A stretch of DNA of 64,000 bases from a virus. The notes under the pieces are model-generated. The model did no database searches, had not been told where the DNA came from, and saw only the letters and a program-made list of their open reading frames with translations. Below, piece by piece: positions 1 to 41,551 of the stretch; position 1 is the first letter of the stretch; each line of letters opens with the position of its first letter. The stretch lies in the IMG/VR virus record IMGVR_UViG_3300042402_002841, positions 32,001 through 96,000 of that record; one strand, given 5' to 3'. A program made the translations under genes and the position numbers.

Positions 1-3000
1 CGAACTGCTTGGTTGGCTAGTTCTTCTGTTGGGTAGTCACCGAGATAGTCACGACCACGGTAAGCGCCCCATGACGGCTTGCCACCAACCGTGTAGCGAC
101 GGACATGGTGCTCGTCACCGCTCTTCATCAGGTTGCGAAGGTTTTGTATCGCTGTTCTGCGAGCAAACGCAGTACCCGCATCAACATCTCTGTTCAGGTG
201 CTCGTCTACTATTTGTGTGAATGCCTTGTAGACACCAACTAATTCCATGTGGTTCATCTTGACTGGTAGTTGCTTTGACCGCTCAAGGAAGTCGTCTATC
301 CACGGCAAATCAATTGTCTGACCGTAAACATCATCTCTGATTGGGTTAACGAGCAGGTAATCCCTACTCTCGTTAACCAACTTCATGAAATCGTCTCTAA
401 TTTCTAGGGGGATATCTATGTTTCTATCAAAACTAGAGGCACTCACAAGACCAGTGCGAATACCTTCTGTTGTTGTTCTGTATGGTTCTGACGGGTTTGG
501 CATTTCACCGAACTCTTTTGCGCCCATCTCTTTGCGCTTAGCGTCAATCTTCTTAATTAAGCGTTGATTGCGAACCCGTGATGCTTCTGCGAGCACAGCA
601 AAACGCGGACCCAATACTGGGTCGTCAGCAAACGACTCCGCAAGCCAAGATGCGTGCCCGAATGCTATTGGGTATTCACCCCTTGAGAGTTCCTCAACAT
701 CAATCCAGTTGAATTGGCTGGCGTCGTCGCCTGCCCGTACAACACTTGATTGTTCGTCACTTATGTCAAAACGAATACCCGCAACACGACCACCCTCTAC
801 GAAGCGAGGGTCCCAGTCTCTAGCGTCTATCTGTCCGAGTATTCTTCTGTCGGTTGCGTCTGTTGGTGAGATATTTACTTCTTCAAGCATCTCTCGTTCC
901 GCTGTGTCGTAGAGGTCTTCGTTTTCGTCTTGTAGACCGCCAGGTAATGATAGTGCGCCACGGAATGGTCCTCTTTTGCGCTCAATAGTGAGGATTTCTT
1001 TCTTTCCGTCATTGCGTGTGCGTACAACAACTACATCGCCAGCCATAACCTTGTCGGTTTTTGACAAAGACCACTCGTTTGTTGACCATTCAATGTCGTC
1101 ATTATCCATACTTTCATCATTAAATGCTTCCAATGAGACCTCGTGACGCTTTGCTCTATCTTCTATCCGTGAAGACGAAGCAAGACCACCAATTCTTGTC
1201 GGAATGTCAAACTTGTCTATTGCGTCATTGTCTGAACGAAGTTGGCGTGTGATTGATGAATATCTGTGTGTCTCAAAAGCAATATCGTCAATTGCTCTAG
1301 TCTTTTCGCCATATGTAGTGGCTTGCTCAAGGTTTTGACGGGCTTGTTTCACGCTGTTTAGCGACTCCGTCATATTGGCTGTTAGTACGGCGTTGCGTTT
1401 GTTCTTTCTCACCAGAGCGTCACTACCATCAAAACTTGAACCCAATGTTGGGTGGATAACCCGTGATTGTTCCAATTCAATAACTTCTAGACCGTTTTTG
1501 GTCTTGACGCTCTTGACGGTGAATTCACCCGCAGTCAATGCCTCAATCGGCATATCTACTATTCTTCCGTCTCTGTCTTTGGCTGGCTTGGTCACGGGTG
1601 CGTTTGCTACAGCAACACCTTCACGCAGTTTAAGTACGACATTTTTCTTGGTAGATGACAGACCTGATGAAATAGCGTCTGGTAAAGAAACTAAATCATC
1701 GGTTTTTGAGTATTTTACAATGTCGTCGTAGTTAGGACTAAATGAGGTTAACGGCATTGAGATTACAGAACCAATTTGTGGTTCAAATAAACCAGAACCC
1801 GTGTCAACATTTCTCACCGAACGATACAGTGGTGCGTCAGAGGAGTATCCGCCCTCTGCGATTTCCTTCATTGCGGAAATGGTGAACATAGTAGAGCGTT
1901 GTACTTCTTCTTTTGATTGTTCGTTTGCGCTGTTTACTGAACCCGAAAGCAGGTATTGGTTCGTATCCGACCCGTAAGAGTTGTCCCTATCTTCTCTGTC
2001 AATGCCATCAATGCCCATTATTTGACTTGAAATAAAACGCATTCTCCAGTTTTCTACCCCATCAACCCATTGTTCGTAAACCTTATCCATAGCCAAAGGT
2101 TTTTCGTTCATTGAGAATGTGTAGTCGCCAATTGTTGCTGTGGTTAGTCCGTCTCGTACATACACTGAATCTTTTTGCGAGTGAGCCCGCTGAGCCTTCG
2201 GGAATGAGTCTTTATGAGAAGAAACTCTCTTATCAACACTAGATATCGCTATTTGTTTCTTTGCGCTACTTGAAGCGAGTCCTTGTCTTGCTTCCCACGG
2301 CTTTTGGTACGGAGAAATATCAGGACTTGATTTCAACCCGAAAACATATGCCATTGCGTGTTCAAGTTCTGGTGTTAGATACTGCGCTCTTATGTTTTGA
2401 TTTGGTGTTGTAAAAAGTACATTTAGTTCCGCAAATTGTTCCTGACGGTTGAAGTTTCCGTACTGAACACGAAGCAAAGGCAATAGGTCGCTTGTTAAAA
2501 ACGGATAAAGAGTATTTATTTCTTCAAGAAGGTCATCACCGAAACTTGGTCTCCACCTATCACGACCACTGCTTCTATCTATAAGCGTAGCGGTGTAGGT
2601 ATTCATCATATCTTCAAAGTCTTGGGCTGCCTTATCACCTAGTGTGCGTTGAACTTGTTTTTTTGCGTTAGCAATGATGTAACCAGAACTTTTTGCTGAT
2701 GAGTAAGGAATAAAAGATGTTTTATCAAAGGAATCTTTAATAAACTTTCCAATATTCATTGCTTCTGGGTTACCAGGAAATAGATACGACATTCTGTCGG
2801 CTCTACTTCCAAGAACTCCACTTTTCTTTGCGTAAGAAAGTCCGACCACCCGACTCCAGAAAGAGTGAGCCCATTCGTGATGAATAATTCCTTCTGGTGA
2901 CAAATCAACATTGAGCAAATACGGAGTGCTACCTGGCTCTGGTACACCATAAGCAATGCGATTGTCAGCAGTTTCAAACATTGAAAGATATGGACTTACT

Positions 3001-5672
3001 TCTCCTGATTGTGAAGGACTCCTAAACGGGCTTGAATCAAAGTTTAAAAATATTCCGAAAGGACCCATTGACCACCCACCAGTTTCACCACTCCTAACAA
3101 GGGGTGACAAAACGGTAGGACCTAGTAATTTTTCTAACTCCCGTGCTTGCTCAATAGCATCAGGGTCTGTGCCAATGAAACCCGAAGAACCAAATGTTCT
3201 GATTTGCCAAGCGAATAATGGAGATGCGTCTAACGCTCTTTTCAAATACTCTCTTACCCTGTCAACACCTTTTGGTGAAAAATCAGGAAACAACATACCA
3301 TTAGGAGAACCATATCCAAGAAATTGTTCTTCAAAAATATCTTTCAATACAGCAAGTTGAGTAGGCGTGAATTGCGAAGCGTCTTGACCGTAAAGAAGGT
3401 TCATCAAGAAAAGATTGAAGGCATCAGTCTCGCTTCTTACGGAAAGAATGTCTGAAATCTCATCATTTGTTGCGTCTTTCAGATAATCACGACCACCTAT
3501 TGGGCTCAACTCTGATTCTGCGCTAAACAAGTTCGGTATTATTCTGTCGCCCGAACTGTCTCGTGGAATAGAGAATGACGCCAAGCCTGCCCGTGACTCG
3601 TCTATGCCACCTGCGATATCACGCTCATACGAGTACGGCTTACCGATAATGTCAAAAATGTCCTCCCGTAAGGCAGGGCTAACTTTGTCTCTGAAACTTG
3701 CGTCGTTAATAAGTATGCCCGAAACGCCCTCTGCGAACGCTTCTGCTGGCATTGTTTGACCGTATTGAGTCATTGCGTGTGGATAGCCGTTCCATCTTTG
3801 TTGTTTGCCGTCTGCGACTCTTTTGCCAAACTTTTTTGCGCCGATTAGGCGACTTGTGAACTTATCTTTTCCGACATCTACGCCTAAGTCGCCGAGAACT
3901 TTCCATACACCCGTGAGACCTGCGTCGTGTTCCCAAGTGTTTGAAAACCAGAATGTAGCAAGCCTTCTTACTTCTGGGTCTGGGTGATTGGTTATTGCGA
4001 GTCTATTTATGTAGTGCCCCCATTCGTGAGCAAGTAACGCATCTTCACGAGTGGACATCATAAACTGTTCGGTGTTTTTTAGTTTAGGAGAGTTAGGTTC
4101 TACGGCGTTTGTAATTCTGCCTGCGACAAGTTCTTGACGAACATCTTGGTTCACAATGATTGCTGGGAAGCCTTCTATCATTGACACTGCGTTAGTGTTG
4201 TCGCCGTCGTCCCATTCGGCACCACGCTTGGTAATCAGTAGCGGTGGAAATCCGTGACGCTCTACTGCTTCTCTAAATAGTCGGTTGTTTGCGAGAGCAC
4301 CCGTGAGTGCTTGGCGCATTTCTTCCACAATTACTGGAGAAAAGTCAAGCGCCTCAACGCCGTCTTTTATGACACTCTTTATTGCGTCTGGTCTAACGCT
4401 CTTGTCGTCATCATCAAATGCCATAAGTGCTTGGTGTTCTTCTAACGCAAGCATTGCTTCCGCTATGTTTGACGGCACAATAAGGCTCGCCATTTCTGCT
4501 GGCTCAAGCCCTCTCATACCACTACCCGTGGTGCTCTGGCGATTTCCACTAGACGACGCTAGACCGCCACTGCGAACGCCTAAGAATACGCTCTCCACCA
4601 TTTCAGCGCCTGCTGTATTCAGTAGTTCTCTAGTCTTTTTGTTTGGAGAGAAGTAGGCGGCGATTGACTCTCCTACAAACTCAACGGGTGAGGTCGTGCC
4701 ATAACCTGTCTTGACAAACGGTATGTCATCAGTTGGTGGGTCTATCTTGTCATCACTAATAGAAGCGTCTGCGAAGTATCTGTAAAAGTCTCGCAGACCA
4801 CCTGTACGAAGCGACTCCTCTGTTTGCCATTGTGGCGTAAGGTAAGACCACGAGTCGCCATACAGAAGGCTTGCTATCTGTCTTGTCTCTGCGTTGGGGT
4901 GATAGTCCGATGTGAGCCTATGTAGGTAGTGTCCCCATTCGTGCGTTACCGTATCCTCTGCGCTTTCACCTGTGACCCACCGCTTGACTCCCCTGATAGG
5001 CAGTGCGTTCATAGTGTTCATAAACCTATTGCCACCTACTGCGCCAATCAACTTTGACAGTTTCTTGTTTGTAGATTTTGAGTCAATAAGTATTGAGTCG
5101 GTCATAAAGATACCTGAGAAACTATTGTCACCTGTAACCATTGCTATTGGTGGCGCACCAAACCTGTCCCACGAAGCCCGTAAGGCAGGGCGGTCATCTA
5201 GCATTTTCTCAACTATCTGACGCAGTTCTTCAACATCATCAGCGTCAAACGATACGGCATCATAGAGGTCATCAATTCGCAGTTGTCCTCTACTGTGTTG
5301 TAGGCGTTGCTCTGTGAATGCGATTGGAGTATCAGGCACGACACGCTCTGCTACTTCTCTATTACTAAGACCTACTAGTTGTGACTTGCCATTAGAAAAG
5401 ATACCCGTGGCACCTCCTGCGCTTGCGAGTCCTCCTCTAATTGTTGAGGCAATGTTAGATAATACTGCTGGTCTCTCAAACGGAGTTGAGTCTTGTACGA
5501 GACCGTCACCGTCGCCGTCTTCAGCGTTCGGGTCATAAACCGCTGCGCCTCTTGCTAGTGAACCAATGTTTGCGCCTAGTGCTTTGTACTGTACGCCTTT
5601 GTCGTTATCTCTTGACGAACGACGACGCATACGACTTGATTCATCAGGATTGATTTCATACGAGAAAGGCAT
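1..5672 (-). CDS. Giant multidomain polyprotein (>1890 aa, C-terminus beyond the window edge): DGDGDG tag, three HExxH zincin metallopeptidase domains, an R-S-E ADP-ribosyltransferase-like domain and a Nudix hydrolase, separated by GLAS motifs
   Basis: Translated manually; absent from the ORF track because no in-frame stop occurs before the edge. ATG at 5672 (MPFSYEINPDESS..). HEWGH ~4929-4943, HEWGH ~4014-4028 and HEWAH ~2865-2879 are each followed by YG-x4-5-E-x3-E. ART-like LYR..TSFS..IEALTAGEF ~1520-1830. Nudix box GLQDENEDLYDTAEREMLEE ~877-936. Confidence 0.88.
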   Translation of the reverse strand, partial: MPFSYEINPDESSRMRRRSSRDNDKGVQYKALGANIGSLARGAAVYDPNAEDGDGDGLVQDSTPFERPAVLSNIASTIRGGLASAGGATGIFSNGKSQLVGLSNREVAERVVPDTPIAFTEQRLQHSRGQLRIDDLYDAVSFDADDVEELRQIVEKMLDDRPALRASWDRFGAPPIAMVTGDNSFSGIFMTDSILIDSKSTNKKLSKLIGAVGGNRFMNTMNALPIRGVKRWVTGESAEDTVTHEWGHYLHRLTSDYHPNAETRQIASLLYGDSWSYLTPQWQTEESLRTGGLRDFYRYFADASISDDKIDPPTDDIPFVKTGYGTTSPVEFVGESIAAYFSPNKKTRELLNTAGAEMVESVFLGVRSGGLASSSGNRQSTTGSGMRGLEPAEMASLIVPSNIAEAMLALEEHQALMAFDDDDKSVRPDAIKSVIKDGVEALDFSPVIVEEMRQALTGALANNRLFREAVERHGFPPLLITKRGAEWDDGDNTNAVSMIEGFPAIIVNQDVRQELVAGRITNAVEPNSPKLKNTEQFMMSTREDALLAHEWGHYINRLAITNHPDPEVRRLATFWFSNTWEHDAGLTGVWKVLGDLGVDVGKDKFTSRLIGAKKFGKRVADGKQQRWNGYPHAMTQYGQTMPAEAFAEGVSGILINDASFRDKVSPALREDIFDIIGKPYSYERDIAGGIDESRAGLASFSIPRDSSGDRIIPNLFSAESELSPIGGRDYLKDATNDEISDILSVRSETDAFNLFLMNLLYGQDASQFTPTQLAVLKDIFEEQFLGYGSPNGMLFPDFSPKGVDRVREYLKRALDASPLFAWQIRTFGSSGFIGTDPDAIEQARELEKLLGPTVLSPLVRSGETGGWSMGPFGIFLNFDSSPFRSPSQSGEVSPYLSMFETADNRIAYGVPEPGSTPYLLNVDLSPEGIIHHEWAHSFWSRVVGLSYAKKSGVLGSRADRMSYLFPGNPEAMNIGKFIKDSFDKTSFIPYSSAKSSGYIIANAKKQVQRTLGDKAAQDFEDMMNTYTATLIDRSSGRDRWRPSFGDDLLEEINTLYPFLTSDLLPLLRVQYGNFNRQEQFAELNVLFTTPNQNIRAQYLTPELEHAMAYVFGLKSSPDISPYQKPWEARQGLASSSAKKQIAISSVDKRVSSHKDSFPKAQRAHSQKDSVYVRDGLTTATIGDYTFSMNEKPLAMDKVYEQWVDGVENWRMRFISSQIMGIDGIDREDRDNSYGSDTNQYLLSGSVNSANEQSKEEVQRSTMFTISAMKEIAEGGYSSDAPLYRSVRNVDTGSGLFEPQIGSVISMPLTSFSPNYDDIVKYSKTDDLVSLPDAISSGLSSTKKNVVLKLREGVAVANAPVTKPAKDRDGRIVDMPIEALTAGEFTVKSVKTKNGLEVIELEQSRVIHPTLGSSFDGSDALVRKNKRNAVLTANMTESLNSVKQARQNLEQATTYGEKTRAIDDIAFETHRYSSITRQLRSDNDAIDKFDIPTRIGGLASSSRIEDRAKRHEVSLEAFNDESMDNDDIEWSTNEWSLSKTDKVMAGDVVVVRTRNDGKKEILTIERKRGPFRGALSLPGGLQDENEDLYDTAEREMLEEVNISPTDATDRRILGQIDARDWDPRFVEGGRVAGIRFDISDEQSSVVRAGDDASQFNWIDVEELSRGEYPIAFGHASWLAESFADDPVLGPRFAVLAEASRVRNQRLIKKIDAKRKEMGAKEFGEMPNPSEPYRTTTEGIRTGLVSASSFDRNIDIPLEIRDDFMKLVNESRDYLLVNPIRDDVYGQTIDLPWIDDFLERSKQLPVKMNHMELVGVYKAFTQIVDEHLNRDVDAGTAFARRTAIQNLRNLMKSGDEHHVRRYTVGGKPSWGAYRGRDYLGDYPTEELANQAV

Positions 5673-5678
5673 TGACTT

Positions 5679-5684
5679 ATTGTA
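5679..5684 (-). promoter_or_regulatory. -10 element (TACAAT) of a probable leaderless promoter for the polyprotein gene
   Basis: TACAAT lies 6 nt upstream of ATG 5672, with no Shine-Dalgarno sequence. Confidence 0.55.
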
Positions 5685-5912
5685 GAACACCTATCACGAT
5701 AGTGTATGAAGGTGTTACGAATGACTAGTGATTGTGTGTGTATTTGTTTGTGTGTGTGTTTTTGTTTGTGTCGTGAGCAGTGCCATACGAGCGTGTGCGG
5801 TTGCGATTACGAATCACTCTTAGCACATCTGTAATCGTTTGTCAAGTATTAGGTGAAACTATTTTTTGACCTCGTGAGCAGGTATCGTTATGCCACTGTC
5901 GTTGGCTTGACT

Positions 5913-5980
5913 TTATCCACAGACTTGTTCACAGCCTGTGGATAACTTTGTCCACACCCTTATACACAGCCTGTGGACAA
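5913..5980. promoter_or_regulatory. Cluster of six DnaA boxes (oriC/datA-like element)
   Basis: TTATCCACA 5913, TTGTTCACA 5925, TGTGGATAA 5937, TTGTCCACA 5948, TTATACACA 5960, TGTGGACAA 5972; 11-12 bp period in non-coding DNA. Confidence 0.8.
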
Positions 5981-6320
5981 CCACACTGAGTGGCTGGCGG
6001 TCACTGTCCGTAACCCACATCTCGGGGCTTTTTCTGGACACATAGGGCGCGCGTGGGGGGACCAGTACAGGTTTTTGAGGTTCCCTCATCATCAGAAAGA
6101 TTTATCTAAACCGCATGGGGTCTGGCGTGGTATTTAAGTCGTGTGTGCGGCGAGCGTGTATGACTCTCGTGTCGTAGTTGTTGTTCTCCACTACCGTATT
6201 CTTGCCGTTTTAGCGTACATGGTAGGGATTACAGGGCCGTTTATCCGTTTTCGCATTTTACAGGGACCCCCTAAAATACAAAATAGCGTTGTGTGGTGGT
6301 GGATAAATTTATCTAATGTG

Positions 6321-6349
6321 TTGTGAAAAAACATCATGAATGGTAGAGT
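6321..6349 (+). promoter_or_regulatory. Sigma70-type promoter, leaderless
   Basis: TTGTGA-17 nt-TAGAGT with a TG extension; ATG 6356 is 6 nt downstream. Confidence 0.55.
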
Positions 6350-6355
6350 ATGTGA

Positions 6356-7701: not shown

Positions 7702-7761
7702 AATACGCTGTTTATGTGTATTCAAAAAAAAAAATCTTACAATAGATAAGGAAAATAAAAA

Positions 7762-11162: not shown

Positions 11163-11480
11163 GTGTTAAAATTGGCTATGTTTAGAGATTCATCTGTGGA
11201 AAAACTTGGGGATAACATTTCCATTTTAAGAGCAACTCGTGAGGCTTGTCCAGTGTGTGGACATCCTACTGGTGATTGCGATGGAGACAGTGGGCCACCA
11301 CAGAAAATTGTTGGTCTTGGAAATGTTATTGAATCATTAAAAGAGTCACAGACAGTTCTTGTTGAAGAAAATATTTATGAAGACCGCCAAATTACACCGT
11401 TTACAAAAGCAAAAGTAATAATTCATCACAAGGGTTCCTACATAACCCTTGAGCAAGCAAAAAATTTGGGCATTGCTTAG
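11163..11480 (+). CDS. Small Zn-finger-like protein (likely start ATG 11178)
   Basis: CPVCGHPTGDC motif; TAAAAT 5 nt upstream of ATG 11178. Confidence 0.65.
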   Translation: MLKLAMFRDSSVEKLGDNISILRATREACPVCGHPTGDCDGDSGPPQKIVGLGNVIESLKESQTVLVEENIYEDRQITPFTKAKVIIHHKGSYITLEQAKNLGIA

Positions 11481-31500: not shown

Positions 31501-33740
31501 GGTGCTCCAGGAACTATTAATGGACCCCAGTGAGGAGATGTTGAGCCAGGAATAATAAGCCCACTTGGTGAGGGCGGTACAGAATCTATTATTTCTATTT
31601 CTTTTTCTGGCAAGAAAGCGTCAAGGACTTCATCAACTTCTGGATTATCTCCTATTAATCCAACTTCTCTGTTTGCAACAAGTTCTGCGTGCGTTTCAAA
31701 AAACGCCAAATTTCTAGCCTGATTAAACGCACGAGGGTTTCTTGTGTCCGCAAGTACACCGAGAGCCTCTTGTTGCTTGACTTGAGAATATTGGCCTGCA
31801 AGAGCATCAAGTCTTCTATCAATTAAATCATTAAAACTTATTCCAAAAACTTGAGCAATGTTTTCATCAGAAGCAGTGTCAATAAATTCTTGCACTACAG
31901 ACATGAGTTCACTGTTAGTTAATGCGTCAAAGTTTTCATCAGGATAAGAAAGTTTGAACCATTCAAATACTGCGTCGTATTGTTTTTTGTGGGTCATTTC
32001 GTGTGCGCCAACTTGGGCACCAAAGTCTTCCCATCCGTTCCCAGCCTCAGCCGCAAGGTCTGTTGAATATGTTTCAACCCACCTTCTTGATTTTTCGTCA
32101 CCACTCATGGCTTCCGTGATTGCTCTCCATTGGTCATCAATGTCGCCACCAGTAGCCTCATAAAGGTCCATGTATCCAGGACCTGGACCTTCTCTGTACC
32201 CCTGTATTGCTGGACCAGAACCTATGTAGATATCTGTCGGGCGAGCGACACCGCCTAACCCTTCAAAATCAAAGTTGCTCCTCCCTTTACTATCAACAAA
32301 GTAACCGAAGTCAACATATATTTCAAAAGGCTTACCGTTTTCAGTTTTAAAAGTTTCTGGATTTTTTGATGCTTCAACAAGTATTTGTTTAAAAGCACCA
32401 ATTCTGAATTTTTTTTCTCTTTCAATTGCTGCGTCAATAAAATTTGTTATGGTGTCGGGTATTCCATCTCTCTTTGCTTCTTCATATGCTGCAATAATTG
32501 CATCTTTGTCTAGCAAGCCAGTTTTTCTTCTTATGGCATCAAGATGCATTTCTACCGTTGTATCAATTACCCACTTTTCATGTTCTTCTGGGGACCCGCC
32601 CATAAATAATTTTTCAAATTGACCAGGAAGAGATGGCGCATCTGGGTCTTCGCTTTGACCAGAACTAAATGGCGCATCTGGGTCTTCGCTCATCGCTCTA
32701 AAAATTTCACCTAAAGCAAGGTATTCGTCTGGCTCCGTAATGCCGTATTTTGTTTTTAAGTCGTTGATGACTTTGTTTTTTTCATCCCTAACCCTGTTCA
32801 TTCTTGCTTCTGCGCCTCTTGTTGCATCCATGACATCTCTCACTCTTGCAACCACGCTTGAAACATAGGAAGGGTCATCTTCTCCTGCGTCGCCAACTAG
32901 TCCTTCCCCTATTCCAGCCCTTGATGCAAGACTCCTCAAGCCATCAATACCGTTCTCCTTGTAGGCTTTTCTAATCTCATAAGCAGACACACCTATATTC
33001 ATAAGCGATTCTGTGACACGAGACCTATTGCCTGGAGCGCTCATGATATTGCTTAAAGAACTGGCAATGTTTTGTATTTGGCTCGCAGAAATACCAAAGC
33101 AACCCTCTCCTCTTTCGTTGGTAAACCTGTTTGCGGCAGGCGTTCCTGGTGGACACCTAAACTTACCGAGTGAGTCAATAACTAACCCCATGGCTCTTGC
33201 CGCTCTTGCCGCAAGTTTTCCTGCAGGGTTTCTTTCACCAATAGTTTTTCCCAAAGATTTTATTTCTGGCTCAAAACCCTGAGACTTCATTGGTTCTCCA
33301 GTTTTTGGATTTACTGGATATCTAGTAACTTTTGCTACTGCTGTTTTTGGTTTTGGAAGACTATTTGTTGGTGCATTGCGGTCCATCCAACCCCAGTTTG
33401 GTACTGGGTCTGGAGAACGAAGCGCTTCAATTCTTTCTGACTCTGTTACATAGTGTTTAAAATACTGACCTTCTTTTTTAGTTGCGTCAGGGTCATAAAC
33501 AACGCCATTAATATTTTTGTAATTTGTTCCCTTTTCTAGTCCACGCTTTTTTCCGTCAGTATTGGGACTAGTAGGCATGGCGACCTTGACTGATACATCG
33601 GCAATTAATCTCTCTGATGTAGAGATAATTTTATTGCCAGCCTTGAATGTCAATGCAGCAGCGTCTGCGTCAAGGCGTGTTGTTCTGCTATTGAACCCAG
33701 GTGCGTAATGGCGAATTTTATTGATGTTCACCCCCGTCAT
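28506..33740 (-). CDS. Giant multidomain protein: RCPxG tag, two HExxH metallopeptidase domains, DUF2510-like motif, GLAS motifs
   Basis: AHEMTH; RHELSH..SRYAMTKKSEYIAE; AGWSPDPSKPGQFRYFNGQVWTEH. Confidence 0.8.
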   Translation of the reverse strand: MTGVNINKIRHYAPGFNSRTTRLDADAAALTFKAGNKIISTSERLIADVSVKVAMPTSPNTDGKKRGLEKGTNYKNINGVVYDPDATKKEGQYFKHYVTESERIEALRSPDPVPNWGWMDRNAPTNSLPKPKTAVAKVTRYPVNPKTGEPMKSQGFEPEIKSLGKTIGERNPAGKLAARAARAMGLVIDSLGKFRCPPGTPAANRFTNERGEGCFGISASQIQNIASSLSNIMSAPGNRSRVTESLMNIGVSAYEIRKAYKENGIDGLRSLASRAGIGEGLVGDAGEDDPSYVSSVVARVRDVMDATRGAEARMNRVRDEKNKVINDLKTKYGITEPDEYLALGEIFRAMSEDPDAPFSSGQSEDPDAPSLPGQFEKLFMGGSPEEHEKWVIDTTVEMHLDAIRRKTGLLDKDAIIAAYEEAKRDGIPDTITNFIDAAIEREKKFRIGAFKQILVEASKNPETFKTENGKPFEIYVDFGYFVDSKGRSNFDFEGLGGVARPTDIYIGSGPAIQGYREGPGPGYMDLYEATGGDIDDQWRAITEAMSGDEKSRRWVETYSTDLAAEAGNGWEDFGAQVGAHEMTHKKQYDAVFEWFKLSYPDENFDALTNSELMSVVQEFIDTASDENIAQVFGISFNDLIDRRLDALAGQYSQVKQQEALGVLADTRNPRAFNQARNLAFFETHAELVANREVGLIGDNPEVDEVLDAFLPEKEIEIIDSVPPSPSGLIIPGSTSPHWGPLIVPGAPPVPDGDLIIPGRRPDAPIDSPKPVKPKRPITPGVLVEPTLPEGAGVIKTPRRPSAPTGRTPRGPVDPFEKDRHGKVPRMIKEERFTNQDIEEHLYGEDGKGGLWGMFRSARNMRIRKGHRLRDTQKKELLNNLVDTMGMSFEELEEIGQKAQRGENITPEEKRKLMSAITHLRNGANEFKIKSEEARRRYEERRQQGNTSTTDTYDDISEFRADLEQIQEEIEMYESLFQRVGRGFAPAVHDILTIVENGPYPDRLGASVGRNALRKSSQEARLSAEEIEAIDFVSDNPPISYLASRSAPDLEFELESNAEVLSAFRRHGITPPDSVTDSDIDSASPAMQALEKTVIEEDIVVEIEIDSIADTEPGSMYSIPSIQSAKIMGEEQDDRGGLASFTPSGSMTATAVGRMLGSRTGRKLIERVGVNPEQADVVQLIGEMAIGFSAGGPAGAIVPLARRGGRDAGEKALEVMVERGMIDQSVADKIIKHGLNRIASEGLPDEIIQAAEATRDRLLTEENRRKALEMGSAFQERSLELAEATREKVSELTESARGQAFEIAGSARERLRRRREGREKPDAVGPGASAGWSPDPSKPGQFRYFNGQVWTEHVSDSSGNQSVDNNPALANQPGWSEYQTGLLASRSGGSLNDPFAEETVPAAFSSPSISDPFEDYSPEAPSVPSVPYSDPFEDMFEESGRTGLASSSAARRSGKKITKKFRVDSKPREKPKTRQELISRAIPTNTSELLSILKESPFTQGKKSEQEILDLINIMEIDWEAQSRLNAKLDKTLNDSPGFEELLGEFDIPPMIVTKNGAAPGRFNREQMYQDPYRWESIEGEYFPEYGFLAFPPRVVNQEEVVSKAVDWPIPTDDILRHELSHTIHAMAMGKNRKARKKYEQDTAEQIDRLEEAISYAERNGIEKIDLINYSLSAEDQELAGEISRYAMTKKSEYIAELMTYMFPGKKTKFFMPKEEHFKMLSEFLDVPIEQLKQLHYKSSDIKFL
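32633..32690. repeat. In-frame direct repeat, 36-nt period (SEDPDAP x2)
   Basis: ATGGCGCATCTGGGTCTTCGCT at 32633 and 32669. Confidence 0.85.
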
Positions 33741-33757
33741 AGCGGGCCACGCTTTCT

Positions 33758-35212
33758 CTAGATTGTTGGGTCTGTATCTTTGACCTCTGCCTCAAGAAGT
33801 TCAAACTCAATGAGTGATGCCATAAGGTCTGAATCTACTTCACCAGACTTTTCTTCAACTACTTTTGCTCCACCAGTAACCCAGTTGGCAGGAATCAACT
33901 TCTCTTGTCCAAGAGCCTTTGCTCTCTTCATGATGTGCTTTTTGGCTGCTTCTTTGTCTTTGGCGCGACCAAATGCGCTAATTGCATTCTTTAGGTCGTC
34001 AGTGTTGGAAATTGGATAAGAACCGTCTGGAAGAGCAGTTCCTTCTTTTGCCATCTGTGTACGAACATCCTCACTGAATGCTCTCTTAAGGGCGATTTCT
34101 GCGGCTTCTGCCTCAATTGCTTCTGCCTCTTCTGGCTCGTACTTGTCGTATCCAAGAACTTCGCCATCAAGTGAAACGAAAACATCGTAGGACTTTCCGT
34201 CAACGCCTTCAATTTCAACGGCGTATGAATCAAATCCTTCAAAAATGTCTGGCTCAACAGCGATTACTTCACCCTCAATTGACTTAACAGCAATTTCTGC
34301 TGCTTCATGGAAATCAATAACCATCATTGAGTCAAGAGCGGACTTTTGTTCAAAAGCGTTGTCATCAAGTTTATGGAAACCAAGAACTTCTGCAGTTGTT
34401 CCATCAATGTAAACCTCAACGGCTCTTCCGTCTTTTGCCTGAACATCAACAACAAACATGTCCGCATCAGACGAGTAGCCAGAGTCAAGAACCTTGCCCT
34501 TAAACATCTGCTCTGCAATACCCTCTACTGAAAGCAAGCCTGGCATTCCACGCTCTGGAACACATCCACCAGGACAATCGTCACAAACTCCCGAACCACC
34601 AGGGTAAACCTTGCGCTCAATTGCACACATGTAGGCGTTTCTTCCGAGTTCAGCAGACTTTTCCCCAAGGCTCATCAGACGCTTTTTTCTGGCTGCCTCA
34701 AGGTCTGTGCCACCCATGTCCGACATATCGTCGTCTTCTTCCTCTTCTTCGTCCTCTTCTTCCTCTTCGTCGTCATCTTCGTCGTCTGCATCCATATCAA
34801 CAGGCATTTTTTTCTTAGAGGTTGGCATTGAGGTCATTTCCTCATCGTCTTCATCTTCTTCTTCGTCGTCGCCAGGCATTCCCATTCCCATGCCCTTTTG
34901 GCGCTTTTTCATCTCTTCCATCATCATGCCGTCGTCCCAGTCTTTACCACCTTTTTCGTAGTAATCGTCGGACTCCGTGACGGGAACCATTTTCATTTGC
35001 ACTGGCATTGCACCGCACTTGCCGCAAACCTTTGCTCCTGGCGTATAACCGCAGTCGGCAGCGTTTGCGCCTTTTGCGCACTTGAGAACATTGCCGTCTG
35101 CATCAACGCTGACTTCAACTTTTTCGTCCATTATGAACTCCTGTTGTCGGTGAGTAAGGACACGAATGTCAATACCAAGTGTGAATCTGTTTGTAAAAGT
35201 ATAACTTAGCAC
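33758..35212 (-). CDS. Acidic protein with Cys clusters, PepSY-like repeats and a DUF6582-like C-terminus (likely start ATG 35131)
   Basis: CGKC, CDDC; D/E tract; EAAEIA..EGEVIAVE..YAVEI..GKSYDVFV..DGEVL; ALPDGSYPI..DLKNAI..GRA; AGGAG before ATG 35131. Confidence 0.75.
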   Translation of the reverse strand: MLSYTFTNRFTLGIDIRVLTHRQQEFIMDEKVEVSVDADGNVLKCAKGANAADCGYTPGAKVCGKCGAMPVQMKMVPVTESDDYYEKGGKDWDDGMMMEEMKKRQKGMGMGMPGDDEEEDEDDEEMTSMPTSKKKMPVDMDADDEDDDEEEEEDEEEEEDDDMSDMGGTDLEAARKKRLMSLGEKSAELGRNAYMCAIERKVYPGGSGVCDDCPGGCVPERGMPGLLSVEGIAEQMFKGKVLDSGYSSDADMFVVDVQAKDGRAVEVYIDGTTAEVLGFHKLDDNAFEQKSALDSMMVIDFHEAAEIAVKSIEGEVIAVEPDIFEGFDSYAVEIEGVDGKSYDVFVSLDGEVLGYDKYEPEEAEAIEAEAAEIALKRAFSEDVRTQMAKEGTALPDGSYPISNTDDLKNAISAFGRAKDKEAAKKHIMKRAKALGQEKLIPANWVTGGAKVVEEKSGEVDSDLMASLIEFELLEAEVKDTDPTI

Positions 35213-35281
35213 GCCGTTCCCCGAGAGGACGGCTACTAATTTGACTATAAAATGATGTTATTCCTGTTGTGTTCTATGTTT

Positions 35282-38200
35282 CTAATTTTTATTAATAAAT
35301 GTAGACATTGCGGCTTCGGAAACTTTTTCAAGCAGTTTTGAATACCAATCAATTCTCTTGTCTCCGCCTATTTCAATTTGGTTATCAAGAGCAAACATCA
35401 AACCTTCAAGAACAAGGTCTGCTTCATCGTCTGTCAAGTAGATACTTCCAACATTGGTTCTTCTGCTGCCAGTCTTTGATGCTTCATTTCTTCTAATAAC
35501 TTCTTGAAGTTTGCTTAGACCATCTTCAGCCTTTTTGTTCTTTGCTTTTTGTGCTGCTCTAATTTCTTTTTGTAAAGAAGTTTCAATATCTTTAAAGAAT
35601 GTGGCTTCATCGGTAATCATTGCTTTTGGTCTTGATGTGGAAGCAAGTCCAACTCTTGACCTCTTACCTTTGTCTGCCTCCTGCTTGCTTCTCATTTCTT
35701 CAATAACTTGACGAGCAACTTCGCTGATTTTCCTCATCTCGTTATCGCGTCTGGCGTTAGATTGAGGCATTTCTCTAGTTCCAGGTCTTGGTCTGTCAGC
35801 ATCTCTTGAGCGTGAGCGCGAGGCGAGACCACCAGAACGAGGTAAGTCATCAATAATCCATGGGTCCTCGGCATACTTGGCTTGCGTTTTGGAAAGTTGT
35901 CCAAGAAGTCTATTTGCTGAAGAAACACTAAGTTTTTCGTACTTATTTTCGCCAGGAGAGTTTGTCTCAATGTAATCCTCAAGTGCTTCAATTGCGTCAT
36001 TAATTGACTTCTTTGTCATATCCCTATCGCCAAGTAAGTCGTTAACTGTTTCCCAAATATCTTCAGAAACAATGTCAATTTCGCCATCAAAATCAAGTTC
36101 ATTAAGTTTATTTTTAATGTCTTGAATTTTTTCTTGGTAAGACTGTAACTCTTCTTCTCTTTGTTCTTTGCCTTCTTTGGCGCTTGCTTTTGGCTTGTAT
36201 GTTTTTTGTGAACCTTGAGTTTTTTCTTTTTCTTGTTGACGCTTTTTTCTTGCGTCACCTTGTCTTTCAATCTCTCTTGGGGAAATTTCTCTTGCCTGCT
36301 CTTCTCTTTCTTCGTTTCTCCGAGCACGACGCTGTTCTGGAGTCATAGAGCGTCTTTCTTCACGCTCCATGTCTTCCATAACTTTTTTAATTGCTCCCTG
36401 ATATGCGGCTTGAGACATCTTTTCGTTTTTGTCTTTAACTTTTTCTGGGTTACCTTCGTACATTAACCATTCAAATTTTTCATCATTTGTCAATTCATCC
36501 CAGTTATCTGGTTTTGCATCATCAAGGGAAAGTCCATCAAATTTAGTATTTTCTGCACCCCTAGTTGAGCCCCTGCCAGTGCCAAAATTGCCTCTTTCGT
36601 TGGCTGAAAGACCAACATCTCCGAGCCCTCTTGCACCAATTCCTCCTGGTCGCGCAGTTCTTCTCTCTTTATCGTTGTCACCAAATCCACCAGAAGATTC
36701 AAGACCAACTCTTCCCCTTCTTCCAGAACCACTGGCAGAACCAGGCCCAAAGTTTTGGTACATGGTGCGGAGTCGTTTCCACTTTGATGCTGCCAATTGA
36801 CCATCGTTTGCTTCAAAATCCCTAAGAGCATCTTGTACGAGTTGTAGATTGTTCGCTCTACCACTTCTTGCCCAGAAAATATAATCTTTCTGCATTGCTT
36901 CAGTTATGTCTGCTGGTGCACCGTTATTGGGTTTTCTTCCTTTATTGGTTGATGCAAGCCCTCCGCCCCTAATATTGAGGCTGGAGTATTCACCGTCATT
37001 GGATTCTGCTGCCTGTTCAAGAACACCAAGAAGGTCTGATGAAACCATTCCGCTTCTTGACTTTGATTGCTCAATTGCTTTAATCAAATCTTCGTACTCG
37101 TTATCATCAATTGAGAATTTGCCATTATTTGATTTTTCAAGTTTTTCAGAAACCGCTTTAAGAATATTTTTGTTTTCAGCAGTACGAGAAAGAAGTTCAA
37201 CCTCGTCCCTGAGTGAACCGATTTCGTCTTCCGTAAGTTCAATATCAAGTTTCTTGTGAGGATTTATTGTTCCACTTTGACTGGAGAATGCTCTTGTTTT
37301 TTTAATACGCCTTGCCCCTGCTTGTCCTGAAAGCCTTGTTCCAGACCTCTCAAGTGCTTCAGTGCTGTAATAACCATCTTTTGATTTCTTTGTTTTCTTC
37401 AAAGAATCAATCAGTTCGTCAATCGCTTTTTTATCGCCTTCATTATCAACTGCACCAAAGTTATTCATTCTGGTCAAAGTGTCAACATAATTATCAATTT
37501 CATCATCAGTCATTGGGATTGCATCATTTGCAACACTACTGTCATCAATTTTGTCAATTATATTTTTAAGGATTTCCATATCCTCATCTGAGCCAACACC
37601 GCCAACTTGCGAATCATCAAGATATTTTTCTAAAACATTTTGAAGTTCGCCATACTCTTCAAGAGTCATATCCATCTGTCGGTTTTCGGAAGCCAAACCT
37701 TCTCTTACCGCACGAGCATTTCTTCCTCTGTCTATGTTTTCGGATGCTGCATCGCCGACTGGGTCGTCAGCCATTCCTCTTCGTGCGCCTGGATTTCTTG
37801 GTCCAAATGCTTCGTCATAGTCTGTGTCGTCATCAAAATTTGAACTAGAGGCAAGACCTGAACGACCTTCTCTATCTTGTCGCTCTTGTCTTTTCTTTCT
37901 AGTAATTCCAATTTCACGCTGACGAAGTTTTGATGGCTCCATCTTGAGTAATTCTCCAGTTTGCTCAAGCGTTAGTCCACTTCTTAAATAAAGAAGGTCA
38001 TCTTCATCGTTTTCTTTTCTTAATTTTGCTGTCAATCTTCTCTCTGTTCTGCGAACTTCTCTCGGCGACATTCCAAATAGTTCAGCAGTATCACGAACAC
38101 TCAAGCCAGAGGCTCTGTACATGAGAAGGTCCATGTCTGAATTTGCCCCAGACTCAGAGTTTTGACTTAGTCTTCTAAATTCTCTATTTGCAGAAGATTT

Positions 38201-41200
38201 TGCAACCCTTGCACCACTCAGGTTGTACTTTTCAGCAATTTCTTTTGCTGACATTCCAGATAGAAAATCTCTAAAAATATCATTATCAGGAATTTGAGTA
38301 CCGTCTTCTGAAACGGTGCGAACTGGTCTTTGCAGGTTTCTTTCACCCCGTGTAGATGCTCTACTCTGTGAAGCCAATCCACCTCTACGGATATCATCTG
38401 GAACATATTGAGCAGGTTTTCCGCCTTCTCTAATAACACCACCGTCAGGAACGCCAGTTAGTTGTTCAATTTCATCATCGCTTAAACCAAGTTCTCTAAG
38501 TTTTTTGAAAACATTTTGGTCAAATTGCGCTCTTCTTTCGCGAGCCTCAGTTGGGTCAACATTTCCTCTTTCATCTCTCTGAATCTGACCATCTCGGCCA
38601 AGCATTGTGCCGTCTCCACGGCGAGATGTTGAAGCAAGACCTCCAGTAAGTGTCCGTTTTGCTCTTACTCTTTCTTGTAAGAATTCAGAATTTAGCCTTG
38701 CATCTTCAAGTTCATCCATAACCCCCTCATTTAGCCCGTTTTTAAAATAATCTTCCCAAAGCGAATTGATTTGTGGGTCGTTTGGATTTTCTTCAAATCC
38801 TTTTTTAGTTGCTCTTTGCAACTCTTTAGAAAAATCCTCTAAATCAATTGATGGGTCTAGTTCTATTATGTTTTCAACTTCAAACCAAAAATCCGCTTCG
38901 CTCATATCTGGCTCTCCGCTTTGAAGTGCCTGAATTAAATTTTCTTTTTTCTGAGACGATTCTTTTTTAGCGTCTTGAATTTCCTTATCAGTTGGTGGTT
39001 TGTTTGCCGACAGGCGACGAGCAGTTTTAAATACCGAATCTGACCATTCATCAACCGTTTCTTCAATCAGTTCATTAATTTTGTCTTCTTGTTTTCTAGA
39101 AGCGTTTTTAGGCATCATTCTTTCTGCAAGCATGCCTCTAACTGCGTCTGTTAAAGCCCTACCAACATCTTCGGATATATATCTATCAAAATTTCTTTCG
39201 CTGCTTTGCAGATTGAGATAATCATCAAAATCTCCGTTTTTTATTGCATCAAGGAAATTTTTTTTAGTTTCAGACAGCATTTCTTCGTCGTCATCAAGAT
39301 TTGAAATTATGTTTTTAAGTATGTCTGCATGTTTATCTGGGATACCGCTTCTATCAATAAATTTGTCCGACACGGGCTTTGAACCAGGACCGCTAACAAT
39401 TTCTCCCCTAAGAACTTCTGGTTTTTTTTCTACAGAAGTTGAAGCAAGTCCGCTTCTTCTCTTTTTTGCGAAGATGGATTCTGGATTCCATGAATCTGGG
39501 TTTTCCCAAGTTCTTTCGCTAAAAAAATCATAAACTTCGTCGTCAAATACTTTTTCTAAGCCCGCCTTACTGACAACCCCTTCATATTTTTCGTTAACCG
39601 CTACACCATATTGTTCTAGCAATCCAGCAAGAATATCTGAATCTTTTTCGGTGCCGTTTGCTAATTCAGTAAGTTTTTCTTTCATCTTTGTTTTGTCTTT
39701 AAGATTTAAGATGTCTAAAACTTCTTTTGAATTTTCTAAATCAAACTCTAAATCGTCTTGATAAAACTTACGAAGACCTTCAGCACTTTCAACGATGTCG
39801 TCAAGAAGTTTTTCATCAGAGCGAACAGCGTCAAGCATCGTTGTGCCCACTCTGCTTCCTGGTTCTCCCCCTGAATAATGAAAAAACGCTCTAGCCAACT
39901 CTTCGTTAGTTCTGTCTTCAAACCATTCTTCGTGGTCTTGTTCACGGGGGGTTAAACCTCTATATGAGGCTAGACCTTGTCTTTTTGGCTCTTTGGGAGT
40001 AGGGGTTTGTCTTCCTTGATTAAATGCACGAGTTGCTGCTTCAGCATCTACTCGGCCACCAGTGGACCTGTCGTTAACACCTGGGATTGCAGGGCGCTTA
40101 AATGGTGTTCCTTCTTGGACTACACCGTCTCCGTCACCATCCCATGCGTTTGGGTCAAACCTTGCCGCCCCTCTGGCGGCTCTGCCCAATTTTCCCAAGC
40201 CTCCGCTTAGCGTGCGCCCCAGGGCTTTTTCGGCCACGCTAATGGCCTCTATAAATTCGCTAGTGACACCAGATGTAACCACGATTCCGTCTTCTGTTAC
40301 ATGCGATTCAACTCTGTGGTAATCAAAAATTGGGTCAAGAAGTTGTTTTGTTTGAAAAGCGTTCTCAATAGGAACTGGGATTATATAGTCGCTCTTAACT
40401 TCAACATCTTTTTCTGCGGACGCAATTACTTCTTGCAGGTTTTCAAGAATGGCCTTGAGTCTTGACATGTTCTTACCACTAAGGGCACGCCCAACTTTTA
40501 CATCAAGTGAGTCAGAAATAATATTTGCTAGGTCTGCAAAATCTTCATCAAAAGACCATTTTTCGTCATTCTCGTAAGACTTTGGCATAATTATGCCATT
40601 CTCACCCATGTCGTCGCCCATATAGGCATTTCCTTGAGGTTTTACCTGCATTGGCATTGAAGGCATTTGTGAAGGAACAACGACTCGTGAGCCAGATTCT
40701 TCCGAAGATGGCATGTAAACGGTTTGCACAGAAACCTTTTCTGGCTTACCAAACATGAACTCTCTACCTGTGTAGTGGTACGCAACTCTGTAGGTTGTAG
40801 GCGCACCGTCTGGTGTCATTCTGTCAAAAATTACTGTATTTTCTTCTGCGAGACGAACTTTTACTGGAGCACCAGCACGGACAGCCAATTCAATCTCTAA
40901 TTGATTCTTGCGCTCATCTCCCACTCTTGGCTTATTTGCTTCAAGAATGTTAGGGGTTGGCCTTTGGTGTCTGTGCGGTATTCCACGGTTGCTTTGCAAC
41001 ATCAACATTCCGCCCTTGGAATCATCAATCATGGTTGAATCATCTGACTTTACTGAAATTGTTCCAGTCAACTGGTTGGCACCATGTAGAACTGGCGAAA
41101 CTTCGTAAAGTTCTACTTCTTTTAAGATGTTGGCCTGAAGATTGGGGTCAAAAATTGAATCAAGAGTCTTATAGCCGATTGACCATTCTTGTTCTTGTCC

Positions 41201-41551
41201 AAAAAAAGCCACATTGGCAAATGCTTCTCGTCCTTTTTCGGAACCTAAATTAAATTGAACTTTCGCATAAAGTCCACCAATTCCAGCCGTAAGCATTTTT
41301 GAAGGAAGTCTTCTGTCTCCAGGAGCAACTTCGTAGATTTCTAGCACCTTACCAATAGGGTCATTCCAGTTGTGCCCCCAAACAACACGAGGCTTTCTTC
41401 TTGTAAGGCTCTTTGTGAAGGCTCCAGAAACAAGAACATCTCCAACAGAATCTTTATTTCCAATACCAGCCACAAAGCATTCAACCATACCCTGTGCTTC
41501 GTCAATGTTGAACTGGCCTGGAATAGCCTTGAATTCAATGTTCTGGTTCAT
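35282..41551 (-). CDS. HK97-family prohead protease fused to a ~1900-aa GLAS-punctuated extension
   Basis: N-terminal DSVGD..GAF, WGHNW..PIG, WSIGY, LKEVELYEVSPV..GAN; then DGDGDG tag, 9 GLAS plus 1 GLES, and tandem sigma-region-4-like HTHs. Confidence 0.9.
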   Translation of the reverse strand: MNQNIEFKAIPGQFNIDEAQGMVECFVAGIGNKDSVGDVLVSGAFTKSLTRRKPRVVWGHNWNDPIGKVLEIYEVAPGDRRLPSKMLTAGIGGLYAKVQFNLGSEKGREAFANVAFFGQEQEWSIGYKTLDSIFDPNLQANILKEVELYEVSPVLHGANQLTGTISVKSDDSTMIDDSKGGMLMLQSNRGIPHRHQRPTPNILEANKPRVGDERKNQLEIELAVRAGAPVKVRLAEENTVIFDRMTPDGAPTTYRVAYHYTGREFMFGKPEKVSVQTVYMPSSEESGSRVVVPSQMPSMPMQVKPQGNAYMGDDMGENGIIMPKSYENDEKWSFDEDFADLANIISDSLDVKVGRALSGKNMSRLKAILENLQEVIASAEKDVEVKSDYIIPVPIENAFQTKQLLDPIFDYHRVESHVTEDGIVVTSGVTSEFIEAISVAEKALGRTLSGGLGKLGRAARGAARFDPNAWDGDGDGVVQEGTPFKRPAIPGVNDRSTGGRVDAEAATRAFNQGRQTPTPKEPKRQGLASYRGLTPREQDHEEWFEDRTNEELARAFFHYSGGEPGSRVGTTMLDAVRSDEKLLDDIVESAEGLRKFYQDDLEFDLENSKEVLDILNLKDKTKMKEKLTELANGTEKDSDILAGLLEQYGVAVNEKYEGVVSKAGLEKVFDDEVYDFFSERTWENPDSWNPESIFAKKRRSGLASTSVEKKPEVLRGEIVSGPGSKPVSDKFIDRSGIPDKHADILKNIISNLDDDEEMLSETKKNFLDAIKNGDFDDYLNLQSSERNFDRYISEDVGRALTDAVRGMLAERMMPKNASRKQEDKINELIEETVDEWSDSVFKTARRLSANKPPTDKEIQDAKKESSQKKENLIQALQSGEPDMSEADFWFEVENIIELDPSIDLEDFSKELQRATKKGFEENPNDPQINSLWEDYFKNGLNEGVMDELEDARLNSEFLQERVRAKRTLTGGLASTSRRGDGTMLGRDGQIQRDERGNVDPTEARERRAQFDQNVFKKLRELGLSDDEIEQLTGVPDGGVIREGGKPAQYVPDDIRRGGLASQSRASTRGERNLQRPVRTVSEDGTQIPDNDIFRDFLSGMSAKEIAEKYNLSGARVAKSSANREFRRLSQNSESGANSDMDLLMYRASGLSVRDTAELFGMSPREVRRTERRLTAKLRKENDEDDLLYLRSGLTLEQTGELLKMEPSKLRQREIGITRKKRQERQDREGRSGLASSSNFDDDTDYDEAFGPRNPGARRGMADDPVGDAASENIDRGRNARAVREGLASENRQMDMTLEEYGELQNVLEKYLDDSQVGGVGSDEDMEILKNIIDKIDDSSVANDAIPMTDDEIDNYVDTLTRMNNFGAVDNEGDKKAIDELIDSLKKTKKSKDGYYSTEALERSGTRLSGQAGARRIKKTRAFSSQSGTINPHKKLDIELTEDEIGSLRDEVELLSRTAENKNILKAVSEKLEKSNNGKFSIDDNEYEDLIKAIEQSKSRSGMVSSDLLGVLEQAAESNDGEYSSLNIRGGGLASTNKGRKPNNGAPADITEAMQKDYIFWARSGRANNLQLVQDALRDFEANDGQLAASKWKRLRTMYQNFGPGSASGSGRRGRVGLESSGGFGDNDKERRTARPGGIGARGLGDVGLSANERGNFGTGRGSTRGAENTKFDGLSLDDAKPDNWDELTNDEKFEWLMYEGNPEKVKDKNEKMSQAAYQGAIKKVMEDMEREERRSMTPEQRRARRNEEREEQAREISPREIERQGDARKKRQQEKEKTQGSQKTYKPKASAKEGKEQREEELQSYQEKIQDIKNKLNELDFDGEIDIVSEDIWETVNDLLGDRDMTKKSINDAIEALEDYIETNSPGENKYEKLSVSSANRLLGQLSKTQAKYAEDPWIIDDLPRSGGLASRSRSRDADRPRPGTREMPQSNARRDNEMRKISEVARQVIEEMRSKQEADKGKRSRVGLASTSRPKAMITDEATFFKDIETSLQKEIRAAQKAKNKKAEDGLSKLQEVIRRNEASKTGSRRTNVGSIYLTDDEADLVLEGLMFALDNQIEIGGDKRIDWYSKLLEKVSEAAMSTFINKN

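Follow-up and report, generated by a model that had tools for sequence, protein, structure and literature searches.

The stretch of DNA analysed here (the window) comprises 64,000 nucleotides, bases 32001-96000 of one 132,392-bp virus record (IMG/VR IMGVR_UViG_3300042402_002841), and encodes five giant proteins, designated polyproteins A to E, in which the tetrapeptide G-L-A-S (the mark) recurs between modules. An earlier note made from the letters alone had proposed that GLAS releases single enzymes from packaged polyproteins. What the note had observed is confirmed, and its interpretation finds partial support. The mark is very probably functional, and a role as a cut site for a phage-encoded protease is the explanation preferred below.

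On the minus strand follow, in order, the genes for the portal protein, polyprotein E, a 484-residue acidic protein, polyprotein D, open reading frames (ORFs) of 616, 198 and 669 residues, polyproteins C and B, the major capsid protein and, later, polyprotein A; the plus strand carries TerL and the tail genes, including that of a 1517-residue tape measure protein. The genes of A to E all lie on one strand, in or adjoining the head-gene block, that is, with the virion or late genes; between the portal gene (41663..43708) and the capsid gene (15440..16798) lie B, C, D and E, and past the capsid gene lies A. The order TerL, portal, protease fusion, ~480-residue protein and D-like protein is repeated in related loci. 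The chains are of multi-domain type, A having three HExxH modules, NUDIX and DUF3626, B having DUF3721 and a Zeta-like kinase, and E having an S78 protease and a helix-turn-helix (HTH) domain. Their features, including a K-[SA]-L-G motif and the segment behind it (the tag), are as follows.

3..5690, minus strand: polyprotein A, N-terminal 1896 residues in the window; the whole protein has 3112 residues (genome 28352..37690) and runs past window base 1
5421-5432, 4554-4565, 3576-3587, 2271-2282, 1176-1187, minus strand: GLAS sites of A in the window (5 further sites outside it)
5451..5585, minus strand: K-A-L-G of A (residue 36) and shared tag (~residues 36-80)
4575..5384, minus strand: module 1 of A (~residues 103-372), zincin-like fold unit with HEWGH at 250, between GLAS 87 and 376
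3639..4538, minus strand: module 2 of A (~residues 385-684), HEWGH at 555, between GLAS 376 and 702
2289..3491, minus strand: module 3 of A (~residues 734-1134), HEWAH at 938, between GLAS 702 and 1137
A residues 1553-1682 and 2915-3006, minus strand: NUDIX and DUF3626, respectively (domain profile matches)
17001..19385, minus strand: polyprotein B, 794 residues, with DUF3721, K-S-L-G at 225, tag, and GLAS at 18408-18419 and 17562-17573
B residues 386-530, minus strand: Zeta-toxin-like P-loop kinase module between the two GLAS of B
19750..23646, minus strand: polyprotein C, 1298 residues, with K-S-L-G at 217, tag, and GLAS at 22684-22695 and 22363-22374
28506..33740, minus strand: polyprotein D, 1744 residues, with K-S-L-G at 161 (33249-33260), a diverged tag behind it, and an N-terminal part that has relatives in 5 of 5 related records
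30324-30335 and 29406-29417, minus strand: GLAS sites of D, which also has HExxH at residues 580 and 1617
35282..41551, minus strand: polyprotein E, the protease fusion, 2089 residues, with S78 protease and HTH among its domains
41027..41551, minus strand: HK97-family (S78) prohead protease domain of E, residues 1-175
40067..40228, minus strand: K-A-L-G of E (residue 442) and shared tag (FDPNAWDGDGDGVVQEGTPFKRPAIPG)
39965-39976, 39440-39451, 38630-38641, 38369-38380, 37847-37858, minus strand: GLAS 1-5 of E
37688-37699, 36950-36961, 35819-35830, 35639-35650, minus strand: GLAS 6-9 of E
57119..61672, plus strand: tape measure protein, with tandem GLAS at 58856-58867 and 58883-58894 and a single GLAS at 57179-57190

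The mark, its linkers and the shared tag

Exact GLAS is present 23 times in six window ORFs (A 5, B 2, C 2, D 2, E 9, tape measure 3), against ~0.4 copies expected from composition; recounting gave the same numbers and places as in the earlier note, and its variants GLVS, GLES and GLLAS were likewise found where it had put them. Over the whole genome the five polyproteins hold 25 copies (~0.3 expected). The claim that the protein richest in GLAS is the carrier of the protease needs correction: E does start with an HK97-type protease, but full-length A has more copies (10 vs 9). From composition, each protein should have 0.026 to 0.10 copies, and in the comparison with shuffled controls that had been proposed, 2000 shuffles per protein yielded none with more than two. 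Among all tetrapeptides of the six proteins GLAS ranks first with its 23 copies, the next unrelated one having 6. A chance origin of the enrichment is rejected by these shuffles and by the family-wide counts given below.

The 25 polyprotein copies are encoded by 22 distinct 12-mers, so that conservation lies at the protein level, in agreement with the variation in codons already remarked on. A DNA-level repeat or recent duplication is rejected by the same diversity and by the lack of any A-to-A blastp self match at E<=1e-3. The surroundings of the 25 sites are also alike: Arg stands at -2 in 16, Gly or Ser at -1 in 15, Thr, Ser or Arg at +1 in 19 (the preference for S/T/R noted before) and Ser or Thr at +2 in 19. 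Compared with the rest of the proteins, the flanks are richer in Arg and Lys (0.195 vs 0.137) and poorer in hydrophobic residues (0.187 vs 0.275). Two more window GLAS in short antisense frames are regarded as noise, and one in a 230-codon ORF outside the window lacks the usual flanks. Tight tandem marks were also seen, as GLASRT GLASRT in A (residues 2364-2380, genome 30571-30600, outside the window), as GLAS-x5-GLAS in the tape measure and likewise as pairs in the family proteins P0041, P0043 and P0020; if cut, they would free peptides of 6-12 residues.

The mark had been placed in flexible, basic linkers at domain borders, and the overlay of domain boundaries on GLAS positions bears this out. 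AlphaFold2 modelled A 1-1190 from a 13-row alignment as three confident domains, and GLAS 87, 376, 702 and 1137 all fall where the predicted local distance difference test (pLDDT) is below 50, in segments 63-102, 373-384, 685-707 and 1135-1146, respectively, with pLDDT<50 making up 26% of residues. In the model of E 440-1600 (14 rows), all seven GLAS (model residues 87, 262, 532, 619, 793, 846 and 1092) lie in pLDDT<50 segments, which amount to 33% of residues. All 11 sites modelled are thus in low-pLDDT inter-domain segments and none is inside a folded domain, a result to be read with the shallowness of both alignments (13 and 14 rows), from which low pLDDT could partly stem and which weighs against the explanation developed below. 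None of the seven Pfam domain matches contains a GLAS site.

The K-[SA]-L-G motif occurs exactly once in each polyprotein (A 36, B 225, C 217, D 161, E 442), and also in the capsid protein (91), the 484-residue protein (432) and the tape measure (720). Chance would give 0.53 copies in total over the five polyproteins, and none of 5000 shuffles placed a copy in every one of them. Directly behind it stands the tag, common to A, B, C and E and diverged in D, a segment of ~50 residues with an acidic DGDGDG loop and the consensus A-R-x-A-x-x-F-D-P-N-A-x-D-G-D-G-D-G-L-V-Q-E-G-T-P-F-x-R-P-A-I-P-G. From the Lys of K-[SA]-L-G to the first GLAS there are 51 to 101 residues in A, B, C and E. A profile search with the tag in 1.84 billion representatives retrieved 464 proteins at E<=0.001, 117 of them at E<=1e-10, many being 2000-3700 residues long; the tag sits at about residue 30 in A-like proteins, 220 in B- or C-like ones and 430-570 in protease fusions. 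Six shorter members of 680-990 residues (P0075, P0080, P0090, P0093, P0115 and P0123) combine the tag with a single HEWGH zincin-like module and have no marks; since such proteins exist, the zincin appears to be shipped as stand-alone tagged cargo as well.

The remaining features of the locus touched on here are the following.

15440..16798, minus strand: HK97-fold major capsid protein, with candidate maturation sites VK/SLGS (residues 91-96) or ~S144/A145
33758..35212, minus strand: 484-residue acidic protein, candidate scaffold, between E and D, K-A-L-G at 432
41663..43708, minus strand: portal protein, adjoining the protease fusion on its upstream side

The 484-residue protein has a long Asp/Glu run and a conserved C-terminus matching the C-terminal part of phrog_80 (protease-scaffold fusions), and its counterpart occupies the same position in related loci; it is a candidate scaffolding protein. 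In B, residues 1-224 (window 18713-19385, minus strand) hold two DUF3721 copies, each with W-M-P-C, ahead of the tag, and WMPC is seen twice again in many B-like members. A class II (B12-dependent) ribonucleotide reductase gene is located between the capsid gene and polyprotein A (window 11449-13599, plus strand). Portal and protease are closest, at ~40% identity, to those of isolated phages of Gordonia, Brevibacterium and Streptomyces, a weak hint of an actinobacterial host.

Module exchange and dialects of the mark in relatives

The IMG/VR contig L002, an 83%-identical relative, encodes a protease fusion whose identity to E is ~90% in the first ~510 residues and once more past the third GLAS, whereas the sequence between the first and third GLAS is unrelated, with the marks retained. 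When all family members were compared with one another by BLAST, block ends (2170 in 39 proteins) were positioned at most 10 residues from a mark in 19.8% of cases, compared with 7.5% (sd 0.7, max 9.3) for circularly shifted marks, an excess to which low-complexity masking of linkers may contribute. Both observations support a swapping of modules at the marks, as read from sequence comparison, and agree with the modular build that had been suggested.

In the relatives L015, L060, L009, L101, L103 and L104, the protease core (window 41027-41551, minus strand) and the capsid protein (15440-16798, minus strand) are nearly unchanged, and the cargo regions share <50% identity, the library holding one representative per 50% cluster. 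The constraint on these two head proteins beside hypervariable genes is unusually strong.

Judged by the sequences of its relatives, GLAS represents one dialect of a mark shared throughout the family, G-[LMF]-[ARS]-S or, in more remote members, R-[LF]-S-S-G; at its core stand a hydrophobic residue, a variable one and Ser. Among the best 150 of the tag proteins, the top tetrapeptide of a single giant reached 13 copies as GLAS, 12 as GFAS, 7 as GMRS, 8 as GLRS, 9 as GLSS and 13 as RLSS(G), and GFSS was used also; remoter IMG/VR protease fusions contain 15-22 copies of R-[LF]-S-S-G. The pattern G[LMF][ARS]S was counted 402 times in these 150 proteins against 36 expected, with 30-45 for three control classes of permuted order, and at least five marks are present in 37 of the 82 tag proteins of at least 1000 residues. 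The dominant spelling accounts for 0.737 of the copies in a protein, against 0.393 (sd 0.014) with spellings shuffled among proteins.

An alignment of A with 15 A-like proteins demonstrated that most A sites align with a mark in most relatives, each in the relative's own spelling, the spellings at orthologous columns being, by lineage, GLAS, GFAS, GFSS, GLSS, GLRS and GMRS. Four columns serve as examples.

A702 column: GLAS, GFAS or GFAS-like in 10 rows
A1137 column: GLAS, GFAS, GLSS, GLRS
A2338 column: GLAS, GMRS, ALRS, GFAS
A2733 column: GLAS, GFAS, GMRS, GVRS

The protease fusions (66 distinct) behave similarly, a mark standing ahead of the NNGAP module in 20 of the 27 that have it and, in 17 of 19, ahead of the C-terminal module that is conserved; each place shows six spellings. 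Unrelated proteins of one genome tend to use one spelling: in the related genome G001 the fusion has nine GMAS and three GMRS, the C-like protein one GMAS and the B-like protein two, and four different proteins in all use GM[AR]S. An attempt to place A-like and E-like proteins of one dialect on one contig led from P0043 to three loci on other contigs and from P0117 to none, and the comparison within genomes then drew on the records behind L060, L015 and L009. The grammar to be sought in related genomes is found there, kept at orthologous positions and spelled by lineage.

Candidate readers of the mark and rival explanations

The mark is exact within a genome, kept at orthologous places and respelled in concert, and therefore calls for a reader that is sequence-specific and varies with the lineage; a protease is the most economical candidate. 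Each giant chain would consist of a variable head piece, one K-[SA]-L-G, the ~50-residue tag, a first mark and then a string of modules, including zincin-like peptidases, a Nudix hydrolase, a Zeta-like kinase, an HTH domain and many of no assigned kind. The tag would direct the chain to the procapsid, and the marks would be the points at which it is split, within the capsid or only after ejection, into single modules delivered to the host. To this explanation, in which the marks are cut sites for a phage-encoded, sequence-specific protease, we give somewhat better than even chances. Packaging, cutting, delivery and the cutting enzyme are what we infer from the features described. As to the cutter, the fused HK97-type protease would come first, tentatively; the zincin-like modules of A and D would be a less probable choice and another phage enzyme a small remainder.

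If the marks are cut sites, one phage would deliver about two dozen separate proteins from five genes, and new effectors would be gained by inserting a module between two marks, swaps of the kind seen in the relatives. With the mark, module borders, and hence candidate anti-host effectors, could be read directly in the sequences of hundreds of uncultured phages. A natural experiment on the joint change of a protease and its many sites would be offered by the dialects, and an address tag with a cut site would be a ready design for loading foreign proteins into phage capsids, and releasing them, in laboratory strains.

The fused protease is recognised by family profiles. Residues 22-165 of E match PF04586 with 40.8 bits (cut-off 21), and phrog_80 is matched with E = 1.4e-26; the stricter equivalog TIGR01543 scored 48, below its cut-off of 59, and phmmer with the protease domain returned no match among PDB sequences. 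An S78 protease is N-terminal to one polyprotein in 105 fusion ORFs (66 distinct), and 24 fusions show no variation at H60, S124 and H156, which we take by analogy to be the catalytic residues. When the protease domain (E 1-175, alignment of 24 rows) was co-folded with E 683-722, the score was 0.00, which is informative neither for nor against. The other end of the fusion (E ~1970-2089, window 35282-35650, minus strand) forms a conserved module of ~110 residues, DEATxF ... RRTNVG ... AAMSTFI, and may be a scaffold-like, capsid-binding end.

For the zincin-like modules, HExxH is invariant or nearly so in 13 A-like proteins. The modules of A gave no Pfam or NCBIfam peptidase match; the 1190-residue A model gave weak Foldseek rows to lethal factor (E ~1, prob 0.72 and 0.57) and PPEP-3, and nothing in the PDB at E<=0.001. 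The ends of the proteins say little about the cut register, as a mark lies near an end in just 3 family proteins, probably by truncation.

Two results speak against the fused protease as reader, which the earlier note had favoured. The protease core (~residues 12-168) hardly varies among 24 fusions spelled GLAS, GFAS, GMRS, GLRS, GLSS and RLSSG, and among the fusions compared the L, F and M classes are not separated by any core column: the best, position 41, sorts them at an accuracy of 0.82 (baseline 0.46), with I41 also in two L-class fusions, and dialect-discriminating columns of the fusions occur only in the variable stretch 172-346, where they may reflect phylogeny alone. Secondly, the tape measure is marked. 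Its tandem GLAS (residues 580 and 589) aligns with two GFAS in G002 and with GMSS in G001, the GLAS at residue 21 having no match in the relatives; in all 3 genomes compared, a tail protein thus carries, at one orthologous site, the spelling of its lineage. Since a protease acting inside the prohead alone would never encounter the tape measure, the mark on it speaks against S78 and favours a reader outside the prohead or acting after ejection.

Further observations count, like these two, against marks cut by a phage protease in the manner proposed. K-[SA]-L-G retains its Leu in the GFAS and GMRS lineages; if K-[SA]-L-G is the HK97-type site, the variable mark may have a different reader. In favour of S78, the capsid VK/SLGS (91-96) and the polyprotein K/[SA]LG resemble the HK97 site NK/SLGS, but HMMER aligns that site to capsid residues 144-148 (S ALPS), not to VK SLGS, and capsid relatives have VK SV or VK GL at this place, on account of which the maturation site is uncertain. 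For the zincins as cutters, only 2 of the 5 related records yielded A-type modules, and 4 of the 5 are fragments, the complete one being matched at only E = 0.003; HEYGH accompanies the four A-like proteins that are purely GFAS and HEWGH the five with GLAS, yet HEWGH also persists in two F-class proteins. Some records are mixed, G002 having mostly GF[AS]S in its fusion and A-like protein with two GLAS in the C-like one, and G005 five GLRS in its fusion with two GLAS in the D-like protein; one dialect per record is a strong tendency and no absolute rule. Finally, tblastn with the tag returned no match in 50,697 GenBank phage records; as far as this search goes, the family is known only from uncultured material.

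A further reading is a two-part code, in which the tag loads multi-enzyme chains and the spelling of the mark co-evolves by lineage with a dedicated reader other than the conserved capsid protease; the marked tape measure would then point to cutting perhaps in the infected cell, after ejection. Such a code is possible and is put forward tentatively. If true, DNA phages would have an equivalent of the polyprotein processing of RNA viruses, with effector cassettes that can be exchanged.

It is also conceivable, if unlikely, that the mark is left uncut and serves as a linker or hinge signal for long chains leaving through the tail (in threading, pausing or unfolding, with portal, tail channel or chaperones as readers), or is a favoured flexible joint. 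The marked proteins, head cargo and tape measure, are those expected in the tail channel, and the marks do lie in disordered basic linkers. A flexible joint, however, needs no exact tetrapeptide kept in 25 of 25 copies with varied codons, and a generic joint needs no concerted respelling across orthologous sites. A conserved structural reader would account for the dialects no better than a conserved protease; among structural candidates the capsid alone was compared, and it is highly conserved.

Reading by a host protease or other host factor after ejection, with dialects that track the hosts of the phage lineages, would account both for the change in spelling despite a constant S78 core and for the mark on a tail protein that also enters the cell. 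No bacterial endoprotease that follows a tetrapeptide rule of this kind is known to us, and signal peptidase I requires a small -1 residue, for which GMRS and GLRS are unfit; a host reader is improbable. Least probable of all is modification of the invariant Ser (phosphorylation, glycosylation or ADP-ribosylation) by a phage enzyme without cutting: a fourth-position Ser is common to all spellings found (GLAS, GFAS, GMRS, GLRS, GLSS, GFSS, RLSS), with S/T usually next, Arg upstream and a Zeta-like kinase module in the cargo, but sites exactly between modules and at recombination borders would be left unexplained and no candidate enzyme is tied to the mark.

Comparison with known systems

In phage T4 the prohead protease gp21 processes internal proteins and Alt. 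The prohead protease of the phiKZ-like SPN3US (gp245) cuts head and ejection proteins after AXE; N-terminal propeptides serve in targeting there, and several cuts per protein are possible (PMC10052503, available text). The cut sites proposed here for the marked polyproteins are similar in that a short rule marks the cuts of a head protease in packed and ejected proteins, cleavage at GLAS being predicted. The proteases of T4 and SPN3US are of other families and cleave behind Glu, whereas the protease here is of the HK97 (S78) family and the mark contains no Glu; their substrates are mostly single proteins losing a propeptide, in contrast to the strings of up to ten enzyme-sized modules found here. 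Neither a lineage dialect nor a marked tape measure is reported for SPN3US in the available text (PMC10052503). The system here would resemble the processing in T4, phiKZ and SPN3US at most in its working, and it is no member of that class.

In HK97, gp4 cuts gp5 between K103 and S104, the uncut PDB chain reading ...TFNK SLGS... and the mature chain being 103 residues shorter; unlike this site, GLAS has no Lys at the equivalent place. The rule of assemblins, (V/L)-x-A/S, is not in register with G-L-A-S. In the herpesvirus pUL26, an N-terminal Ser-His-His protease is fused to the assembly protein, with release and maturational sites (PMC4498786, as far as its available text goes). The E-like fusions are alike in having invariant H60, S124 and H156 and a conserved C-terminal module of ~110 residues that follows a mark in 17 of 19, but differ in that ~1,500 residues of exchangeable cargo are inserted in E between protease and C-terminal module.

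A close likeness is also seen to the polyvalent proteins of Iyer, Burroughs, Anand, de Souza and Aravind (2017, PMC5512222), which are giant chains of many unrelated domains encoded among virion genes. According to the available text of that paper, their predicted fate is to accompany the DNA and to be split into units by peptidases that they themselves contain, for the most part zincin-like ones related to lethal factor (PMC5512222). A has three conserved HExxH modules, candidates for such a part, and its model gave only weak Foldseek rows to lethal-factor-type peptidases. A difference concerns the position of the other peptidase, assemblin-like ones being always C-terminal there (PMC5512222) whereas the S78 protease is N-terminal in E.

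As to the earlier note's statement that it knew of no described GLAS system, none was found in the literature search, and multi-domain virion-delivered proteins cut by embedded peptidases are already in print (PMC5512222). In the available text of PMC5512222 the terms 'linker', 'interdomain' and 'low-complexity' are absent, and 'cleavage site' appears in a reference title alone; K-[SA]-L-G with the DGDGDG tag, dialects and a marked tape measure were not found in it, and its supplementary architecture files could hold family members. Nor did the search, mostly at abstract level and with supplements outside it, find a punctuation motif, dialects, a shared tag or a marked tape measure elsewhere. 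The punctuation code was thus not found in print, and the system as a whole, on present comparison, fits the published concept of polyvalent proteins, which its authors liken to the polyproteins of RNA viruses (PMC5512222).

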